Assembly (NCBI GenBank): GCA_903943955.1
Contig: CAJAPZ010000082.1
Location: 2,078 to 66,077, forward strand
Origin: an uncultured Actinomycetes bacterium
GTDB lineage: Bacteria; Actinomycetota; Thermoleophilia; Miltoncostaeales; Miltoncostaeaceae
Direction of reading: 5' to 3'
Length of the DNA stretch: 64,000 nt
The notes under the pieces were generated by a model. The model was not told where the DNA came from. It saw only the letters and a list, made by a program, of their open reading frames with translations, and made no database searches. A program made the position numbers and the translations under genes. Positions 10,374-39,603 of this stretch are shown here, one piece after another. Position 1 is the stretch's first letter. Every line of letters begins with the position of its first letter.

Positions 10374-11966
10374 TTAGCGGACCACCACAACGAGCGAGCG
10401 ACTGGTGCCACCGCGTGGCGTGGCGGTGAGGCGCCACCGACCGCGCCCGAGGGCCGCACCGCCGAGACCGCCTTCAAAGGTGATGGCATTGGCCCCGTCT
10501 GCACCGCTCAGCGAGAGTGCTCCTACCTCGCGGCCACCTGCCGATGGTGTGATGGCCAGCCGCACGCGGGAGGGGTTGGAGAGCCCGAAGGTGACCCTGA
10601 AGCGCTGGCCGGGGCTCACAGTCGCGGGGCGTGCCCGGAGGTCCACCAGAATCGCCGGACCCGGCTGGTCGGAACCGGCCAGACCTGTGGCCGACGACAC
10701 ACCCGCCTGCGCGATGGATGGGTCGAGTGCCGGGTCGGTCCACTGCCACATAACGGGTGCGATGCCGTCATCCCCGATGACGCCCTCAGGGGCAATTGCC
10801 GGAAAGCGCGGATCGGAGATGGTGGCCGGTGCGCCGAAGTCGGCGGTGGCGGCGCGGAGCGCAGCCTGGGCTAGGTACGAGGTGCCGGTGGTCGCGGGCC
10901 AGGTGACCAGCGCCGCGCCCCCTCCGCTCACCGACAGACGGGGTGTTCCCGCGGTCACGGAGCCGTCTGATAGATCGCGGGGCGGACCCCAGGGCTGGCC
11001 AGCAACCCGCGTGGCCGCCTCCACCACGCCGGAACGAACCCATGTGGCAACCGCGTTGCCCCGGGCATCGGTGGCCACCTGCGCCCCCCGGGCCTGCGTG
11101 CCAGGTCGCGAGATGTCATCCGGCTTGGTCCACACACCGCCCACCGGAAGCGAAGCGGCCTGGGTGATGACGTCGGCACCGCGCAGGAGGGTCCATGCGG
11201 CGACTACGTCGCCGGATGGCGCTATGGCGATCGCTGGGTCAACAAAGACTGAAGAGCTCGTCTGAGATACGTCGGCCGGAACGCTGAACGATCCGTCGCG
11301 CTGGCGCATGGCCGCGCGCACGCGGTGCTGATCACCCTCGTCGCGGCGCCAGGCGATAACCGATCCGCCTGGGCTGGCGGCAATGGCTGGGGTGAACGCG
11401 AGCTCATCCGGCTGCGAGACCGGTCGGGTGGCCGCGAAGCGCCCCGATGAAGACGCGCAGGCCGACTCGATCGTATTGGCGCCACCCGTCACCGCTTCGC
11501 CCGACCATGCGACCAGCGGGGCACACGCGCCGCCAAGCGCCACGACCGGGGTGGTGGCAATGCGGCCCGGAAGCGACAGTGCGGTGGCGGGAAGAAAGCG
11601 GCGACGGGCCGGGCGCAGGCTCACCCGCACACGGCCCCCCTCGATCCATGTGACCGCCGCCTGCCCGCCTGTGGTCATGGCAACGGCCACCTGCGTGGCA
11701 CCGCGGCCACTTCCCGGTACGCGTACCGGCTGGTACCACGGGCCGCCCGGGGTACGCAGCGTTGTGACGACACCGGTCGGGGTGGCCCAGGCGGCGACCG
11801 CCCGACCATCGTCGTTGCCTGCGACGGCGGGCGCACCGGTGCCCCTGACCTGCCCGGCGAGGGGCGACGGTGGGAGCCACTGCGTGGCGGCGCTCGCCCC
11901 TGCAGGCAACGCTGCGAGTGCGAGAAGGGTGATGGCGGTGCGGTTCACAACCCCCATGGTGCCCAC
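10374..11966 (-). CDS. secreted repeat protein (about 8 beta-propeller-like blades plus a C-terminal Ig-like domain), function unknown
   Basis: Signal peptide AITLLALAALPAGASA. Eight repeats with the motif hhh(A/T)W fall at residues about 60, 106, 154, 206, 258, 309, 356 and 407, spaced 46-52 aa apart. Confidence 0.6.
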   Translation of the reverse strand: MGTMGVVNRTAITLLALAALPAGASAATQWLPPSPLAGQVRGTGAPAVAGNDDGRAVAAWATPTGVVTTLRTPGGPWYQPVRVPGSGRGATQVAVAMTTGGQAAVTWIEGGRVRVSLRPARRRFLPATALSLPGRIATTPVVALGGACAPLVAWSGEAVTGGANTIESACASSSGRFAATRPVSQPDELAFTPAIAASPGGSVIAWRRDEGDQHRVRAAMRQRDGSFSVPADVSQTSSSVFVDPAIAIAPSGDVVAAWTLLRGADVITQAASLPVGGVWTKPDDISRPGTQARGAQVATDARGNAVATWVRSGVVEAATRVAGQPWGPPRDLSDGSVTAGTPRLSVSGGGAALVTWPATTGTSYLAQAALRAATADFGAPATISDPRFPAIAPEGVIGDDGIAPVMWQWTDPALDPSIAQAGVSSATGLAGSDQPGPAILVDLRARPATVSPGQRFRVTFGLSNPSRVRLAITPSAGGREVGALSLSGADGANAITFEGGLGGAALGRGRWRLTATPRGGTSRSLVVVVR

Positions 11967-12011
11967 GTGCCGGGCTGAAGTCCACGCGTTGGGTCACGTT
12001 CGTGCGGATTT

Positions 12012-12845
12012 GTGGAAGGGTCGGGGCGTGCTGCGTCGAAACAATCGCTCGTGCCGCCTGACGCAAATGAACTCGCAGAGGTCCTCCGCCGTGACTACGA
12101 GCGCTTCAGCCCTGCGCAGAAGTCGCTTGCGCGCTACCTGATCGATCACCTGGCGGAACTTCCGCTGGTGTCGGCGCATGAGGTGGCCCACGCGGCACAT
12201 TGCAGCCCCGCGACCGTGGTGCGCTTTGCGCAGGCGCTCGGATACGCCGGATATCCGGAGATGCAGCGGACCATCCGGCAGGCGCATCGCCCCGGTCTTG
12301 GTGTGCGCGCCGTCGGCGGTCTGCCCCAGGGTCGCGTGCAGGTGCTCGACGCCGACCGTCTCGCCCTCGAGGATGCCGCCGCCCGTCTGGGCCCCGATGG
12401 GGTCACCCCGCTGGCAAGCGCACTCGCCGGTCGGCACCCCATCATTCTTGCCGGCGACGCCACCGCACGACCCGTGCTCGCCTTGCTGGAGGAACGACTC
12501 TCCCGCGCCGGACGCGAGACGCTGGTGGTCGATTCAGTCGAGCCCCGGATCCGCATGCGCCTGGGTGCGCTCGCACGCGGCGGCGCGCTCATCGCGGTTG
12601 CGGTGGGCAAGGACACCCGCGTGGCCGAGTACGCCGTGGCCGCCGCCCGTGCAGCCAGTGCACCGGCTGTGGCGCTGGTCGATTCCAGTCTTTCCGCGGC
12701 CGCACGTGCCCCGCATGTGCGGGTGATTCCCGCTGAGGAGCGTGGTGGGGAGCCCAGTCTCACGGCATTCGTCGCCGTTGCTCAGGCACTCGCGCAGTCG
12801 CTTGCATCGCAGCCAGTCGCACGTCGCGCGCTCTCCGCTGCCTAG
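12012..12845 (+). CDS. RpiR/MurR-family transcriptional regulator (HTH_6 + degenerate SIS domain)
   Basis: ARYLIDHLAELPLVSAHEVAHAAHCSPATVVRFAQALGYAGYPEM helix-turn-helix, with a C-terminal SIS-like alpha/beta region. Confidence 0.75.
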   Translation: MEGSGRAASKQSLVPPDANELAEVLRRDYERFSPAQKSLARYLIDHLAELPLVSAHEVAHAAHCSPATVVRFAQALGYAGYPEMQRTIRQAHRPGLGVRAVGGLPQGRVQVLDADRLALEDAAARLGPDGVTPLASALAGRHPIILAGDATARPVLALLEERLSRAGRETLVVDSVEPRIRMRLGALARGGALIAVAVGKDTRVAEYAVAAARAASAPAVALVDSSLSAAARAPHVRVIPAEERGGEPSLTAFVAVAQALAQSLASQPVARRALSAA

Positions 12846-34422: not shown

Positions 34423-35304
34423 TTACGAGGAGATCTCGCGCGGGTATGAGCCGGGGTACGTGCCCACGAGCGACCGCGCCTGTGAGAGTGCCTCAGATTT
34501 GGTGGTGAAGACTCCCGAGAACACCACCCAGTACCCGGGACGAAGCGACGGATGGTCGGTGCTGAACAGCACCCCACCCGGCTGACCAGACGACTGGAGC
34601 TTCGATGCCGCCGATCGCGCGGCCGCCTCGTTCTTGACGCTCGACACGATGGCAGTCCAACCGCTGGTCCCTGACGGCCAGTCATCGGACCCGGTGGCAG
34701 ATGAACCGCTGCCTGACGAACCAGTTGAGTCGCTCGTGGTGGGCAATTCGCTGGTGGTCTGCCCGTCCACCCCAGGGCCAGTCACCGTGAGCACACCGGA
34801 GTCGCCGGTGGTTGCAGTGGTGTCAACAGGAAGGCCGCCAGTGGTGCCCGTGGTGTCTGGCAACAATCCACTCGTGTCGGTGGGGAGGGTGCCCATCGTG
34901 TCTCCGGGCAGGCTTGAGTCGGTGCTGGTGGTGGGAATCGCCGTCGTGGGCACCGTGATGACCGGCGCCGTGCTGACCATGGGCACCGGAACCGCTCCAG
35001 GGCCACCATCGTCGTTGGACGCCACGTAGGCGAGGGCACCTGCGCCAGCGCCAAGGATTGCCAGCCCGATTGCCACGCTTGCGAGGCCACCAGCGCCGCG
35101 CCGCATCTTGGGGGCGAGCGGAGTCGGTGATCCGCACTCAAGGCAGTAGGTCTGCGCGGGGTCAAGTTCGCAACCGCACACCGAGCAGGTGGGAGGCGGC
35201 GCGGGTGTCTCGACCGTGCCGGCGTCATCACCGGATGAGGCGCCGCCCGCGGGATCTGGGAGCGGCGGATCGACGCCCGGGTACGGGCTGTCGTGCGGAG
35301 TCAC
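34423..35304 (-). CDS. zinc-ribbon / TM / Thr-rich linker / SPOR domain protein
   Basis: CSVCGCELDPAQTYCLECG ribbon, one TM (LASVAIGLAILGAGAGALAYV), a Thr/Gly/Ser-rich linker, and a C-terminal SPOR-like region GWTAIVSSVKNEAAARSAASKL...GYWVVFSGVFTTKSEALSQARSL. It overlaps the upstream gene by GTGA. Confidence 0.65.
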   Translation of the reverse strand: MTPHDSPYPGVDPPLPDPAGGASSGDDAGTVETPAPPPTCSVCGCELDPAQTYCLECGSPTPLAPKMRRGAGGLASVAIGLAILGAGAGALAYVASNDDGGPGAVPVPMVSTAPVITVPTTAIPTTSTDSSLPGDTMGTLPTDTSGLLPDTTGTTGGLPVDTTATTGDSGVLTVTGPGVDGQTTSELPTTSDSTGSSGSGSSATGSDDWPSGTSGWTAIVSSVKNEAAARSAASKLQSSGQPGGVLFSTDHPSLRPGYWVVFSGVFTTKSEALSQARSLVGTYPGSYPREISS

Positions 35305-35954
35305 GACTTCGACTCACTCTCGCCGGGCATCGGAATGGCCTGCGTGGCCTGAGGATCGTCGGCGCCGCTGGCGATGACTTGCGTGGGCTGCTCGGGCATA
35401 TCGGTGATGACGATGGTGTCCTGCTCCACCTCCACCACCTCCGTGACGATGGCGAGGGGTACTCCGCACTCGGCACAGAAGTTGGCCCCGGACTTGCAGC
35501 GTGCTCCGCACGACGGGCAGGTGATGCTGGCGCCGCGACCGGACTGGCGCCGTTCGGCACGGGACGACTTGATGCCGTCCAGTTGATCATCCACCTGATG
35601 CACCTGACCACGAAGGTCGCTCACCTCGGCAGCGCGTCGGCGCATCACCTCTTCAGCCAGCAGCCCGCGGCCATATAGCTCAAGGGCAAGGCCACCCAGA
35701 TCAAAGATCCCCTGCTCGTACTGGCCGAGGAGCATGCGACGACGTCGCCGCAGCACGCCGGGGCGGATGCGTTCGGGCGAGTCGGCCTCGATCATCTCGG
35801 TGTCGCTGGACTCAACTACGACGTCCGGAGACGCCGGGGTCACCACGGTGCGGCGCCGGAAGAGCCGACGCTTCTCGGGGGCGGAATCCACGACCTCGGC
35901 GTCATGCGACACAGGGTCCGGGGCGATGGGCTCGTCGGCAGCGGAATCGATCAT
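35301..35954 (-). CDS. zinc-ribbon coiled-coil protein, function unknown
   Basis: Disordered N-terminus, a coiled-coil segment, then a CPSCGARCKSGANFCAECG ribbon paralogous to the one in the downstream gene. Confidence 0.55.
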   Translation of the reverse strand: MIDSAADEPIAPDPVSHDAEVVDSAPEKRRLFRRRTVVTPASPDVVVESSDTEMIEADSPERIRPGVLRRRRRMLLGQYEQGIFDLGGLALELYGRGLLAEEVMRRRAAEVSDLRGQVHQVDDQLDGIKSSRAERRQSGRGASITCPSCGARCKSGANFCAECGVPLAIVTEVVEVEQDTIVITDMPEQPTQVIASGADDPQATQAIPMPGESESKS

Positions 35955-36041
35955 TGAACGGGCGGATCGTAACCAGCCGCATCGGACGACGTGCCCCGAA
36001 ATGTTTCAACGTTTCAAAATCGCGTGAGTTGGGCAATGCGT

Positions 36042-36071
36042 TTGACGCGGCGCGGGTTGCTCCGCTAGCGT
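36042..36071 (+). promoter_or_regulatory. putative sigma-A-type promoter (TTGACG-N18-TAGCGT) for the riboswitch transcript
   Basis: The hexamers were read directly. The -10 element ends about 7 nt before the P1 helix. It lies in a locally AT-richer stretch. Confidence 0.3.
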
Positions 36072-36074
36072 GCT

Positions 36075-36180
36075 GCCTGCATCAAGAGCGGTGGAGGGTA
36101 TGGCCCTTTGAAGCCGCGGCAACCAGCGAATACTCGTCAGGTGCCAATTCCAGCAGGCATTCATGCCTGGGAGATGCGAT
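36075..36180 (+). promoter_or_regulatory. SAM-I (S-box) riboswitch
   Basis: Core aucAAGAGcGGuGGAGGGuauGGCCCuuUGAAgCCgcgGCAACC...GGUGCCAAuUCC...gggAGAUGcg. P1 pairs GCAUC 36079-36083 with GAUGC 36173-36177. Confidence 0.85.
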
Positions 36181-36239
36181 GGTCGACGTGCAGGTTCGCA
36201 CCGTGACCCTCGACTCCCGGCACCGATTGGGAGATTGGG

Positions 36240-37505
36240 ATGGGACACACGGAAGGGCGCGTCACAGGAGCACGTGGGCTCCGCTGCAAGGAGTGCGGCG
36301 AAGAGCTGCCGTTGGGCGCGTCGTACGCCTGCGAGTTCTGCTTCGGCCCGCTCGAGGTCGTGTACGACCTCGACTATCTGCGCGCCAACGTCACCCGTGA
36401 GTCCATCGAGGCCGGCCCCCAGTCAATCTGGCGGTATGCCGATCTGCTGCCCTGCGCGCCGATTGACACCCAGGTGGGCCTGCCTGTGGGCATGAGCCCG
36501 CTTGTGCCCGCCCCGCGCCTGGCTGCCCGCCTGGGCCTCGGCGAAGTATGGGTGAAGAACGAGACGGCCAACCCCACGCACTCCTTTAAGGACCGCGTGG
36601 TGAGCGTGGCGCTGCAGAAGGCCCGTGAACTCGGGTTTGAGGTTGCCGCGTGCGCATCCACCGGCAATCTGGCCCAGTCGGTGGCGGCACATGCTGCGGC
36701 CGCAGGCATGGAGAGCTTCGTGTTTGTGCCGAGCGACCTCGAGTCTCAGAAGATCGTTGCCACGGGTATCTACGGCTGCACGCTCGTGGCCGTTGATGGC
36801 AACTACGACGACGTCAACCGGCTGTGTATGGAGCTGGCCGCCGATCGCCCGTGGGCGTTCGTCAACGTCAACGTGCGGCCGTACTACAGCGAGGGCAGCA
36901 AGACCCTCGCCTACGAGACGGTTGAGCAACTCGGCTGGACGCTGCCAGATCGCTGCATCGTGCCCATCGCCTCCGGCTCCCTGTACACCAAGATCCGCCG
37001 CGGCTTCGGGGAGTTTCTCGAGCTTGGTCTGGTTGAGGGCAACGTGCCGCACATGAATGGCGCCCAGGCGCAGGGATGCGGACCCGTGGCGGCGGCGTAC
37101 GAGGCCGGGCTTGACTTCGTGACCCCGGTGCGTCCCGACACCATCGCCAAGAGTCTCGCCATCGGCAACCCGGCCGATGGGGTCTTCGCGCTGGATGTTG
37201 CCCATGAAACCGGCGGATCAATCGACGCGGTCTCTGAGCGCGAGATCACCGACGGAATCTGCCTGCTGGCAGAGACCACGGGAATCTTCACCGAGACCGC
37301 GGGCGGCGTGACCACCGCAGTGCTCAAGCGCTTGGCGGACCGTGGCGAGATCGGCGCCGACGAACGCGTGGTGCTCTACATCACGGGTGACGGACTGAAG
37401 ACCCTCGACGCAATCGCCGATCGCGTGGAGCCAGTCACAATCAGCCCCACCGTGGGCGACTTCGAGGCTGCTGTGGCAGGCCGCGGCACCCCTCTTCCTG
37501 CATGA
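36240..37505 (+). CDS. threonine-synthase-fold PLP enzyme with N-terminal Zn ribbon (candidate MetM-type homocysteine synthase rather than ThrC)
   Basis: CKECGEE...CEFC ribbon, PLP-lysine motif NPTHSFKDRVVS, and a fold-type-II body. The functional call comes from context (SAM riboswitch upstream, CysO-like gene downstream). Confidence 0.8.
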   Translation: MGHTEGRVTGARGLRCKECGEELPLGASYACEFCFGPLEVVYDLDYLRANVTRESIEAGPQSIWRYADLLPCAPIDTQVGLPVGMSPLVPAPRLAARLGLGEVWVKNETANPTHSFKDRVVSVALQKARELGFEVAACASTGNLAQSVAAHAAAAGMESFVFVPSDLESQKIVATGIYGCTLVAVDGNYDDVNRLCMELAADRPWAFVNVNVRPYYSEGSKTLAYETVEQLGWTLPDRCIVPIASGSLYTKIRRGFGEFLELGLVEGNVPHMNGAQAQGCGPVAAAYEAGLDFVTPVRPDTIAKSLAIGNPADGVFALDVAHETGGSIDAVSEREITDGICLLAETTGIFTETAGGVTTAVLKRLADRGEIGADERVVLYITGDGLKTLDAIADRVEPVTISPTVGDFEAAVAGRGTPLPA

Positions 37506-37533
37506 TCAACCCGACGACCCTGAGGATTCCCCG

Positions 37534-37806
37534 ATGAGCGTGACCGTTCGCATTCCATCTCCACTTCGACCGCTCACCGGCAATGCCGGCACGGTTGAGT
37601 GCGCACCCGGCACGGTGGCGGCGATCATCGACGAACTTGAGGCCAATCACCCCGGCTTCCGTGATCGTGTGACGCAGGACGGCAAGCTGCGCCGCTTTGT
37701 GAACGTGTTCGTCGCCGGGCAGGACGTCCGCTTTGAGCAGGGCATCGACACAGCAGTGGCCGACGGCCAGGAGGTCACCATCCTCCCTGCCGTCGCAGGG
37801 GGCTGA
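37534..37806 (+). CDS. MoaD/ThiS-family sulfur-carrier protein, CysO-like, C-terminal GG
   Basis: 90 aa ending ILPAVAGG-stop. The motifs IPSPLRPLTG, LEANHPGF and RFVNVFVAGQDVRF parallel M. tuberculosis CysO as I recall it. Confidence 0.85.
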   Translation: MSVTVRIPSPLRPLTGNAGTVECAPGTVAAIIDELEANHPGFRDRVTQDGKLRRFVNVFVAGQDVRFEQGIDTAVADGQEVTILPAVAGG

Positions 37807-37817
37807 CGGCCACGGCA

Positions 37818-38651
37818 CTGGGAACGGCCTTCGTCACCGGCGCCACCGGCCTCATCGGCGGCGCAGTGGTGGATGCACTCCTCGAGCAGGGTGTGGAGGT
37901 AACGGCGCTTGCCCGTACCGATCGGGGCGCGTGGGCGCTTCGCGATCGTGGCGCCACGACCATCCGGGCTGACATCGGGGAGTCGATCCAGTGGGACCGT
38001 GCGGCACAGGACGCCGAGGTTATCTTCCATCTGGGCCTCCCGCGCATTACGCCACCGGTACGCGGGCGACACCTGCGCAAGTTGGAGCGTGAGGCCCAGG
38101 CCGGCGCAGAGATCATTCACGACATCGCCGCCGGCCGGGATGTGGTGATGGGCACGTGCGCGATTGGCGACGCAGATGGTCCTCTCGATATCGCCCGCCC
38201 GGGCCTGGCGGCTGAGCGTGCGCTGGTGGGTCCCGGTGTACGGATCGTGCGCCTGCCCTGGGCCTATGGCCCCTCCGGATTTATCTGCGACATGTCGCGC
38301 GGGCTGCAGATGCGTCGGTTTCGCATTGTGGGAGCGGGTGACAACCCCATCGCGGTCATCGGCGCCCGTGACGCCGCCGCGGCAATCATCGCGGCATCGG
38401 CAGCGCCAGAGGGCACCTACACAGTGGCCGAGGAGTCGATGCCCACGCAGGTCGAGTTGGTGCACCTCATGTGCACCACACGGGGCGTACCCCGCCCCGA
38501 CCACCTGCCGGCGCGTATGGCGTCAATGGCCATGGGGGGAGTCATCGTCGAGGCCCTCACCGCGCATCAGCGGGTCGAGATGGCGCCACCGCCGGGCTTC
38601 ACGCACTCCCAGCGATGGGACGACGACCTGATGGACGCCCTCAGGACCTAG
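37818..38651 (+). CDS. NAD-dependent epimerase/dehydratase (SDR) family protein; start codon unresolved (non-canonical start or damaged 5' end)
   Basis: The in-frame FVTGATGLIGGAVVDALLEQG Rossmann loop is encoded at 37830-37892. The first canonical start after the in-frame stop at 37734 is GTG 37866, inside that loop. I placed the start provisionally at CTG 37818. Confidence 0.55.
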   Translation: MGTAFVTGATGLIGGAVVDALLEQGVEVTALARTDRGAWALRDRGATTIRADIGESIQWDRAAQDAEVIFHLGLPRITPPVRGRHLRKLEREAQAGAEIIHDIAAGRDVVMGTCAIGDADGPLDIARPGLAAERALVGPGVRIVRLPWAYGPSGFICDMSRGLQMRRFRIVGAGDNPIAVIGARDAAAAIIAASAAPEGTYTVAEESMPTQVELVHLMCTTRGVPRPDHLPARMASMAMGGVIVEALTAHQRVEMAPPPGFTHSQRWDDDLMDALRT

Positions 38652-38965
38652 CTGTCGGCGTCGAGTGCTTCCGGCGGAATGATGGGAAGTTCGGTGGCGT
38701 GCTGCACGCGTCCGCCCACCTGGTAGCGCAGGTCAACCACGTCGGCCTTCTGGTCGCCGTAGACGCCCACGCCGGCCAGAAGCGCCATCTTGCGGCCGAA
38801 GCCCTTCGACTTGACCTTCGGAACGAGGGGGGTGGTGAACCGGAGCCACCGTCCCTCAACGGTGTAGTGCTCGCCCTCGTGCCGTGGTTCGCCATTTACC
38901 CACACGCTGAACGGTGTCTCGGCACCTTCGGGCAGGGCCACATTCCATGTGCGGGAGTCGGCCAT
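38648..38965 (-). CDS. hypothetical protein (105 aa)
   Basis: Balanced composition with no recognisable motif. It is convergent with the SDR gene and shares the CTAG stop tetranucleotide with it. I trimmed it to ATG 38965. Confidence 0.4.
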   Translation of the reverse strand: MADSRTWNVALPEGAETPFSVWVNGEPRHEGEHYTVEGRWLRFTTPLVPKVKSKGFGRKMALLAGVGVYGDQKADVVDLRYQVGGRVQHATELPIIPPEALDADS

Positions 38966-39002
38966 TCGAACGACATTAGCGGCCACCCGTAGACTTCCGC
39001 GT

Positions 39003-39461
39003 ATGAGAAACCGCACGGTTCGCGCCCTGGCCATCGGTATTGCGTTGGCAGCCATCCCCGCAACGATCGCATCTGCCGAGGCGGTGCGCGAGCTGGTATC
39101 AAGCTCTCCGGCCCAGGGAGCCCCCGGCTATGTGCTCAATATGTACAAAGTCACGATCCCCAAGGGCACCACTCTGCCGCTGCATTATCACCCGGGTACA
39201 CAGCTCGTGCGGGTGCAGCAGGGGGACCTGACCTACACGGTGGAGCGCGGTACCGCGTACCTCAGCATCCCCCGGGCCGGAATGGATCCGAAGAAGATTC
39301 CCATCCGCCCGGGGCAGACGCGGGTGGTGCATCCCGGGCAGGGTGTGGTGGAGCCAGCCGGCATGCGCCACTTCGCCAGCGCACCCACGAGCACCGTGAT
39401 CCTGGTGGTGTCCATCCTCAAGCCGAAGGCCTCGGCGGGCACGATCAACGTCGCCCCGTAG
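39003..39461 (+). CDS. secreted cupin-domain protein
   Basis: Signal peptide ALAIGIALAAIPATIASA, plus cupin motifs LPLHYHPGTQLVRV and GVVEPAGMRHFA. Confidence 0.65.
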   Translation: MRNRTVRALAIGIALAAIPATIASAEAVRELVSSSPAQGAPGYVLNMYKVTIPKGTTLPLHYHPGTQLVRVQQGDLTYTVERGTAYLSIPRAGMDPKKIPIRPGQTRVVHPGQGVVEPAGMRHFASAPTSTVILVVSILKPKASAGTINVAP

Positions 39462-39512: not shown

Positions 39513-39585
39513 GCGCGCGTAGCTCAGTGGATAGAGCACTGGCCTCCGGAGCCAGGGGTCGCAGGTTCGAATCCTGCCGCGCGTA
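39513..39585 (+). tRNA. tRNA-Arg (anticodon CCG), no encoded CCA
   Basis: I folded the cloverleaf by hand. The acceptor pairs GCGCGCG with CGCGCGT (G1-U72 wobble). The D arm is GCTCAGTGGATAGAGC. The anticodon stem pairs CTGGC with GCCAG around the loop CTCCGGA. The T arm is GCAGGTTCGAATCCTGC and the discriminator is A. The next bases are ctc. Confidence 0.9.
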
Positions 39586-39603
39586 CTCGTTCGGAGGCAC
39601 TTC

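Follow-up and report, generated by a model that had tools for sequence, protein, structure and literature searches.

The closest described counterpart of the locus analyzed here is the MetM/MetO pair of Streptomyces albulus (Hasebe, Adachi, Maruyama and Hamano 2024, Appl Environ Microbiol 90:e01247-24). This pair belongs to a thiocarboxylate route from O-phosphohomoserine to homocysteine, the components of which are the MetO sulfur carrier, Mec, the sulfur ligase MoeZ and MetM (GapMind 2026 preprint, which already encodes the pathway). In the same account, MetM is a ThrC homologue that is frequently misannotated and that has MetO, MoeZ and Mec as partners; Mec is described as a [MetO]-L-cysteine hydrolase that matures the carrier terminus, which in S. 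albulus is apparently called for because the carrier bears an extra terminal Cys. The S. albulus metM gene, unlike a homologue in Microcystis, is also described as having an upstream S-adenosylmethionine (SAM) riboswitch (PMC12172450). Here a comparable locus is described within a stretch of 64,000 nucleotides (termed here the window) from an uncultured bacterium of the Actinomycetota, class Thermoleophilia, family Miltoncostaeaceae (contig CAJAPZ010000082.1, positions 2,078 to 66,077 of the forward strand). All coordinates given below are those of the window, unless they are attached to another locus. The locus consists of the following elements:

36076..38651, forward strand: SAM-I riboswitch, metM-like gene, metO-like gene and short-chain dehydrogenase/reductase (SDR) gene, in that order; a proposed three-gene transcription unit
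36043..36072, forward strand: putative promoter, TTGACG (36043-36048)-N18-TAGCGT (36067-36072), read from the sequence, with a predicted function only
36076..36180, forward strand: SAM-I (S-box) riboswitch aptamer (RF00162, 83.6 bits)
36240..37505, forward strand: metM-like gene for a 421-residue, ThrC-fold, pyridoxal phosphate (PLP) enzyme with an N-terminal Cys4 zinc ribbon (PALP domain, 227.7 bits in Pfam); activity predicted
37534..37806, forward strand: metO-like gene for a 90-residue beta-grasp sulfur carrier of the CysO/ThiS type, ending ILPAVAGG-stop (ThiS, PF02597, 56.4 bits in Pfam)
37803..38651, forward strand: gene for an atypical SDR of the NAD-dependent epimerase family, with the Rossmann motif TGATGLIGG and a match to the Epimerase Pfam model

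From comparisons of this locus with its relatives it is very likely that it forms a SAM-riboswitch-led unit, the first two genes of which are orthologous to Streptomyces metM and metO and would produce homocysteine from O-phosphohomoserine by way of a sulfur carrier. An earlier note on this DNA, made from the sequence alone, had proposed such a MetM/MetO-type route with reference to the Streptomyces pair; the existence of that pair is borne out by the literature (GapMind 2026 preprint and PMC12172450), and the proposal itself gains support from the separateness of the enzyme family, from the linkage of aptamer and carrier to it, and from the identification of the Streptomyces pair as MetM/MetO. 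The note had further presented direct SAM feedback as a feature of this locus: the riboswitch is indeed present, but it is not a new twist, being already part of the S. albulus system in its published description. The pathway is thus known, SAM riboswitch included, from Streptomyces since 2024, and it is the occurrence in Thermoleophilia that is new. Three traits are specific to the lineage: (i) a carrier that is encoded with its Gly-Gly end already mature, (ii) an expression platform that probably sequesters the Shine-Dalgarno (SD) sequence, as opposed to the terminator of a sister clade, and (iii) an SDR gene that is apparently coupled through a CUG codon.

The comparison set comprised 161 loci, namely 80 derived from genomes, 80 derived from metagenomes and the Miltoncostaea marina locus; the nearest relatives of the window enzyme among protein database matches are those of Thermoleophilia, family Miltoncostaeaceae. 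Across this set the three elements are closely linked. An aptamer directly precedes the enzyme gene at 78/78 genome-derived and 59/67 metagenome-derived loci (137 of the 145 testable loci overall), and the carrier gene lies just downstream at 51/77 and 56/57 loci, respectively (107 of the 134 testable overall), with aptamer, enzyme and carrier complete at all 22 of the Streptomyces loci compared.

The aptamer itself is a full-length match to the Rfam model (RF00162, positions 1-108 of 108), with a score of 83.6 bits (E = 2.8e-18 over the 64-kb window) against a curated gathering score of 44.4 bits, and is the sole riboswitch match that an Rfam scan finds in the window. Helix P1 pairs 36078-36083 with 36173-36178, and the 3' end of the aptamer precedes the enzyme's ATG by 59 nucleotides on the same strand. 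Orthologous aptamers scoring 56-93 bits, above the gathering score, occur in 13/13 of the relatives with metM that were scanned with Rfam. By its sequence, then, the leader counts as a genuine riboswitch of the SAM-I class, and it is predicted to bind SAM. The promoter ahead of it is less conspicuous: the -10 hexamer TAGCGT agrees with TATAAT at 3/6 positions, and no site in the window leader passes a strict sigma-70 promoter scan. The assignment is made because the hexamers recur in relatives, a TTGAC[GC] -35 element followed by a -10 element of the TAnnnT type being found upstream of the aptamer in 14/15 close relatives; two relatives (L001 and L092) have stronger sites that do pass the scan (TTGACC-N18-TATACT and TTGACG-N18-TATGAT).

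Between the aptamer and the enzyme gene lie the elements of a candidate expression platform, as follows:

36165..36184, forward strand: arm A, comprising P4-3', J4/1 and P1-3' of the aptamer (its 3' side) and 4 further nucleotides; predicted anti-sequestor partner of arm B without SAM
36181..36208, forward strand: GC-rich spacer hairpin without a U-tract, from folding; compatible with both conformations
36206..36221, forward strand: arm B, the switching arm ACCCUCGACUCCCGGC that both helices share, including the anti-SD sequence CUCCC (36214-36218); predicted to pair with arm A or, alternatively, with arm C
36227..36243, forward strand: arm C, the ribosome-binding region, consisting of the SD sequence GGGAG (36229-36233), a spacer and the AUG (36240-36242); predicted to be sequestered by arm B

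Because a MAFFT alignment of the platform was out of structural register, its conservation was judged by arm-to-arm duplex energies in comparison with shuffled-arm controls; and because unconstrained minimum free energy (MFE) folding of the leader gave spurious long-range pairs, it is upon this comparative duplex analysis that we relied. In the window the A:B duplex, which stacks beneath the hairpin at 36181-36208, amounts to -18.7 kcal/mol and consists of GCC/GGC, GGGAG/CUCCC, CGA/UCG and GGU/ACC (drawn as GCC.GGGAG...CGA / UCG.CUCCCGGC). The competing B:C pairing is a local hairpin at 36207-36243 of 12-14 base pairs and -14.5 kcal/mol, within which the SD sequence and the start codon are buried. 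Both are retained in 9/9 distinct sequences of the window subclade, the A:B duplex at -16.7 to -20.4 kcal/mol and the B:C duplex, of which the SD sequence plus spacer makes up the 3' arm, at -13.6 to -21.8 kcal/mol; moreover, the sequences of the B:C arms vary while their pairing stays (for example, CUCGACUCCC/GGGAGUCGAG in L085 and CUUGGCUCCC/GGGAGACCGG in L088). Most of the A:B and B:C duplexes are far better than those formed by shuffled arms. The aptamer-enforced fold (-73.6 kcal/mol) and the anti-sequestor fold (-74.0 kcal/mol) are nearly isoenergetic and therefore ligand binding could tip the balance between them. A terminator scan finds no terminator-like site in 35800-38900, and none of the 10 leaders from the window subclade has a U-tract. 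Taken as a whole, these patterns of pairing suggest that the riboswitch probably controls translation, by hiding the ribosome-binding site.

In this leader the earlier note had already picked out an S-box core at 36075-36180 with a GCAUC/GAUGC pairing in P1 (which falls inside the P1 helix given above), the two promoter hexamers, the hairpin lacking a U-tract, and the CUCCC, GGGAG and ATG elements, and each of these is found where it had been placed. Its suggestion of a translational OFF switch is supported as well, and is extended here by the pair of competing helices that the subclade has kept.

Certain folding results, however, count against so specific a mechanism. For two relatives, L088 (45/300) and L084 (20/300), the B:C duplexes are not clearly above shuffled controls, and the folding z-score of the leader is only -1.76. 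In the aptamer-enforced MFE structure, UCCC pairs with a GGGA at 36242-45 and the SD sequence is left in the loop of a small hairpin. From thermodynamic folding by itself, neither the SD pairing nor its exact register can be picked out; in the modeled structures the ribosome-binding region is occluded in either register. To these may be added that blocked translation often exposes bacterial mRNA to Rho, such that effects on translation and on transcription may coexist. This last point also favors the first alternative to be weighed, in which the same genes are involved and the riboswitch acts on transcription, through Rho-dependent termination or polymerase pausing. The lack of a unique SD pairing in MFE folds is likewise in accord with it, as is the architecture of a sister Miltoncostaea subclade, where the homologous CCUCCC arm forms the 5' strand of a terminator hairpin that is followed by a U-tract (L092, GCCCTCCCGGCGGAGGGC-TTTTTT); U-rich tracts occur in 5/5 leaders of that subclade and at no more than 1/79 actinomycete genome loci. 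Against it stand the terminator scan of the window leader and the missing U-tracts in the window subclade, along with the fact that in 9/9 members the OFF hairpin has the SD sequence and spacer as its 3' arm. Transcriptional control is accordingly regarded as unlikely, and hiding of the ribosome-binding site is retained as the working interpretation for the window clade. Seen side by side, the two subclades suggest, from their sequences, that the expression platform has been exchanged between close relatives, with the aptamer and the competing strand remaining fixed. (The sister-subclade terminators are located at 9940-9975 in L001 and in the leaders of L091-L095, for example at 2935-2962 in L092.)

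The enzyme is of a kind that automated annotation would take for a threonine synthase. It scores 264.3 bits against TIGR00260, the NCBIfam thrC equivalog (cutoff 167.1), and 275 against a longer thrC equivalog, NF006050, which is below the cutoff of 303; all of its named relatives in the protein database are labeled threonine synthase. Sequence comparison nevertheless sets its family apart from canonical ThrC. The enzyme is 53-55% identical to 22 riboswitch-linked Streptomyces proteins and 36-38% identical to four solved ThrCs from four phyla (PDB 1UIM, 2D1F, 2ZSJ and 6CGQ), which are 55-61% identical among themselves; the Streptomyces riboswitch-linked proteins, for their part, are 33-37% identical to the ThrCs. 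In a neighbor-joining tree the riboswitch-linked enzymes are monophyletic, with a stem branch of 0.19. The alignment of the solved ThrCs begins only at about residue 60 of the enzyme, and the extra N-terminal domain has four cysteines, C16, C19, C31 and C34, that 158/158 family members share. In the alignment, the PLP lysine K61 of Thermus thermophilus ThrC has K117, within the motif HSFKDR, as its counterpart.

A further distinction concerns five residues of the T. thermophilus enzyme, T88, N154, S155, R160 and N188, which reportedly are ligands of the substrate or product phosphate, a group that ThrC uses to direct the addition of water (Omi and colleagues 2003; Murakawa and colleagues 2011). 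The residue numbering was checked against 1UIM. All four solved ThrCs carry T, N, S, R and N at these positions. Four of the five are replaced family-wide in the riboswitch-linked enzymes, T88, S155, R160 and N188 becoming L144, N211, Y216 and S245 in at least 157/158 members, and N154 is retained, as N209; R213 and K304 are newly conserved. Such remodeling of the phosphate site is what would be expected if the enzyme performs a gamma-replacement. Family-fixed changes at this site or in its vicinity are TGNT to TGNL, N-SVNPxR to NVNVRPYY, GNAGN to ASGS, ATAI to AKSL and PASW to PADG. Residues L144, N211, R213, Y216, S245, K304 and G314 are a possible annotation signature as well as candidate specificity determinants.

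These comparisons bear upon the proposal that the enzyme is a true threonine synthase, possibly with a second activity as a threonine deaminase, in which case SAM would partition O-phosphohomoserine and the carrier would be unrelated or accessory. In its favor are the TIGR00260 score, the PLP lysine and overall fold that are shared with ThrC, and a cyanobacterial member of the family: a 51.6%-identical Microcystis homologue, encoded beside a metO-like gene, is reported to have threonine synthase and threonine deaminase activity in vitro, and its high expression reportedly did not raise cellular methionine (PMC12172450). Also, no canonical thrC is found among the window open reading frames (ORFs) scanned with Pfam. 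The replacement of four of five phosphate-site residues in nearly the entire family and the low identity to ThrCs, which resemble one another far more closely across four phyla, argue the other way, as does the tight linkage to a carrier and a SAM riboswitch, together with the Streptomyces pair, which has been shown genetically to supply methionine. A SAM-dependent OFF switch would, in addition, cut threonine production when SAM is high, which is the opposite of the logic in plants, where SAM activates ThrC. On balance a true threonine synthase is very improbable.

The Microcystis results nonetheless weigh against a MetM/MetO-type pathway here, and two other observations do so as well. First, riboswitch and enzyme occur without the carrier, or any other small ORF ending in GG within about 6 kb, at L002-L026, L028, L033, L041, L045 and L054, loci which belong to Micromonosporaceae, Geodermatophilaceae, Jatrophihabitans and others; because such carrier-less relatives exist, the carrier is perhaps not obligatory for the enzyme family. 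The enzyme at these loci may borrow CysO or use free sulfide. Second, orthology to the characterized S. albulus MetM is deduced by way of other Streptomyces species and so is of an indirect kind. The MetM/MetO-type reading is kept here with these reservations.

The carrier gene begins 28 nucleotides beyond the enzyme's stop codon, with an SD sequence of its own (GAGGA, 37522-37526). Its product matches M. tuberculosis CysO end to end (3DWG_C, from the CysM-CysO complex; E = 3.2e-24), the C-terminus TILPAVAGG being common to both, and its next structural relative is a CysO that is used in thiosugar synthesis (4N6E_B). To its Streptomyces counterparts it is 52-60% identical. A motif (I/L)PAVAGG concludes 51/51 carriers of the genome-derived loci plus M. 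marina, with a further Cys in 9 of these. Over all loci the commonest carrier end is GG (96 carriers), and approximately 21 carriers have one extra residue (C in 10, A in 5, K in 4, and F and V). Those with a residue beyond Gly-Gly, about a fifth, would, as judged from their termini, need C-terminal trimming. A crude motif scan for JAMM-type genes within about 4 kb of metM/metO at related loci returned two spurious matches only, and revealed no link between carriers of the GG-X form and an adjacent protease. (The GGC carriers are those of L044, L055, L056, L066, L069, L072, L076, L077, L079 and L150, several being from Streptomyces; GGA carriers occur at L097, L111, L133, L135 and L139, and GGK carriers at L154-L156 and L160.) The window carrier ends at GG, and therefore needs no Mec-type trimming.

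For these two genes too the earlier note proves largely accurate: a ThrC-fold PLP enzyme with a zinc ribbon and an HSFKDR motif is what the PALP match, the invariant cysteines and the alignment of K117 indicate; the expected automated label of thrC is the one that the models and databases apply; the phylogeny that it called for places the riboswitch-linked family apart from solved ThrCs; a 90-residue beta-grasp protein ending in AVAGG does follow 28 nucleotides downstream; and no MoeZ-like partner, that is, no ThiF or rhodanese protein, appears among the window ORFs scanned with Pfam. Its statement on the JAMM protease, that none is required, is valid as regards the maturing of the carrier's C-terminus and requires qualification otherwise, inasmuch as, by analogy with CysO and Mec, a hydrolase could still be required to free the product from a carrier adduct.

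The remaining alternative, that the pair makes some other sulfur compound (cysteine from O-phosphoserine, a cysteate-like compound or a thio-metabolite) with the carrier being a CysO orthologue instead of a dedicated MetO, can point to the CysO entries 3DWG_C and 4N6E_B as the carrier's best structural relatives, to a weak match of the enzyme to the cysteate synthase model TIGR03844 and to the general knowledge that SAM riboswitches control some cysteine genes of Firmicutes, yet it is scarcely credible given that the enzyme falls outside the CysK/CysM type, that its closest characterized relatives are ThrCs that use O-phosphohomoserine, that its Streptomyces orthologues are a characterized homocysteine synthase, and that the TIGR03844 score (75 bits) is far below the cutoff of 325.

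If the preferred MetM/MetO-type reading is correct, the unit might operate as follows. By extension from the published system, a MoeZ-type enzyme encoded elsewhere would convert the Gly-Gly end of MetO to a thiocarboxylate, and MetM would eliminate phosphate from O-phosphohomoserine and add the carrier's sulfur at the gamma carbon; the product would be homocysteine, the precursor of methionine and SAM. When SAM is high, the aptamer would be locked, with 36165-36178 held in P4 and P1, and arm B would thereby be freed to pair with the SD sequence, spacer and start codon (36227-43), so that metM translation would be blocked. When SAM is low and the aptamer is undocked, arm B would pair instead with the aptamer's 3' side, and the ribosome-binding site would be exposed.

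The third gene presents an unusual start. The Rossmann motif TGATGLIGG of the SDR is encoded upstream of the first in-frame ATG, GTG or TTG, and the sole in-frame start candidates are two CTG codons. That at 37803 shares bases with the stop codon of metO (cTGA); the other is at 37818. With this N-terminus the Epimerase Pfam score is 43.5 bits, versus 19.8 bits, which is below the cutoff, without it. An SDR gene lies 3' of metO in 13/13 close relatives whose contig extends beyond metO, and in roughly a dozen relatives the only in-frame start candidate ahead of the motif, or else the one nearest to it, is a CTG overlapping the metO stop; at L092 and L093 the SDR starts are ATG or GTG. (The relatives with the CTG overlap are L001, at 11552-12457, together with L082, L083, L085, L086, L088-L091 and L094.) Most public gene calls for this SDR family are shortened to 261-267 residues and have no Pfam match. 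The SDR gene has no canonical start and probably depends upon ribosomes that terminate at the metO stop; the arrangement of the reading frames suggests that it is probably co-transcribed with metO and translationally coupled to it by termination-reinitiation at the CTG.

Whether the SDR belongs to the pathway was considered and this candidate role was downgraded. At L163 (4687-5909) an SDR gene occupies the same neighborhood (hydantoinase, a SPOR-like gene and CLIPPER) without the riboswitch, metM or metO; in the cassette's place is a 107-residue ORF resembling a helix-turn-helix protein, the stop of which overlaps the GTG start of the SDR. It follows from this arrangement that the metM-metO cassette was gained or lost as a unit in front of the SDR. 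Within the SDR family, which is small, Tyr-x-x-x-Lys is not conserved, so that the usual catalytic Tyr and Lys are lacking, and the best solved relative is only YtfG (E = 1.6e-5). The comparison of neighborhoods suggests that the SDR is probably a resident neighbor that has been drawn under the control of the operon, not an obligate part of the pathway. That this clade-restricted protein is a genuine third, SAM-controlled component of the thiocarboxylate route, for instance one supplying reducing equivalents or a precursor, seems quite improbable.

The other genes of the window have housekeeping roles (ruvCAB, secDF, recJ, relA, hydantoinase, pyrR/B/C, carAB, gmk, coaBC, nusA, infB, truB, ribF and pnp). 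Among the approximately 50 window ORFs that were scanned with Pfam there is no ThiF/rhodanese (MoeZ-like) protein, no JAMM (Mec-like) protein, and no hom, thrB or second thrC. Pointing away from the riboswitch promoter, at 34423-35954 on the reverse strand, are the divergent genes for a zinc-ribbon protein (35301-35954) and a SPOR-domain protein (34423-35304); this pair is also found, in unchanged order, ahead of the locus in M. marina and L162. Farther downstream, 3' of a cupin-domain gene (38949-39461), is a tRNA-Arg with anticodon CCG (39513-39586, forward strand; RF00005, 72.1 bits).

These results leave current understanding intact, and the chemistry is predicted by homology; the main practical value lies in the correction of a widespread threonine synthase annotation. 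Given that the relatives are named threonine synthase and that the enzyme matches a thrC model, metabolic reconstructions will miss this methionine route, and may over-count threonine synthases, in Thermoleophilia and in many other Actinomycetota. A re-annotation rule can be framed from three features: the enzyme has the L144/Y216/S245 signature, and its gene is preceded by a SAM-I aptamer and followed by the gene for a GG carrier. The locus extends the Streptomyces pathway of 2024 to a further class of actinobacteria, and the association of riboswitch, enzyme and carrier is very widespread. The sister clades, in turn, offer a natural example of platform exchange, with the switching arm being used in a U-tract terminator in one and to hide the ribosome-binding site in the other.

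Set against the described systems, the locus most resembles that of S. albulus: in both, a ThrC-homologous PLP enzyme adjoins a small GG carrier beneath a SAM riboswitch, and in both the enzyme is mislabeled as a threonine synthase. It differs in that the host belongs to the Thermoleophilia and is not an actinomycete, in that the carrier ends at GG, where that of S. albulus has a terminal Cys for the removal of which Mec is apparently required, and in having a third, SDR-family gene coupled downstream; the expression platform, moreover, has been worked out here for the window clade.

The CysM/CysO/Mec/MoeZ system of M. tuberculosis, a cysteine pathway, shares its logic with the one proposed for the window: on a PLP enzyme of fold type II, a phosphorylated amino-acid intermediate is attacked by the thiocarboxylate of a protein. 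The window carrier is an end-to-end CysO homologue with the same TILPAVAGG terminus. Unlike that system, the window locus pairs its carrier with a ThrC-like enzyme that has a zinc ribbon, not with CysM; its predicted substrate is O-phosphohomoserine (by gamma-replacement), not O-phosphoserine; it is placed under a SAM riboswitch; and mec and moeZ are not found adjacent to it. The protein-thiocarboxylate methionine pathway of Wolinella succinogenes (HcyS/HcyD/HcyF/MetY), reportedly described by Krishnamoorthy and Begley in 2011, likewise delivers the sulfur of homocysteine from a ThiS-like protein thiocarboxylate. That pathway differs from the window's in that its PLP enzyme is MetY, of fold type I, acting on O-acetylhomoserine, in that its carrier needs proteolytic maturation, and in that the activating genes are clustered with the carrier.

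With canonical ThrC the window enzyme has in common its fold, the SFKDR motif of the PLP lysine and, probably, O-phosphohomoserine as substrate; canonical ThrC lacks the zinc-ribbon N-domain of about 60 residues and has T88, S155, R160 and N188 where the window enzyme has L, N, Y and S. Finally, the leader shares with S-box leaders of the Bacillus type the same aptamer family and the use of the aptamer's 3' side to compete for a downstream arm; unlike them, it has no U-tract and its predicted OFF helix would hide the SD sequence and start codon, with the Bacillus-like terminator platform surviving in the sister Miltoncostaea subclade.

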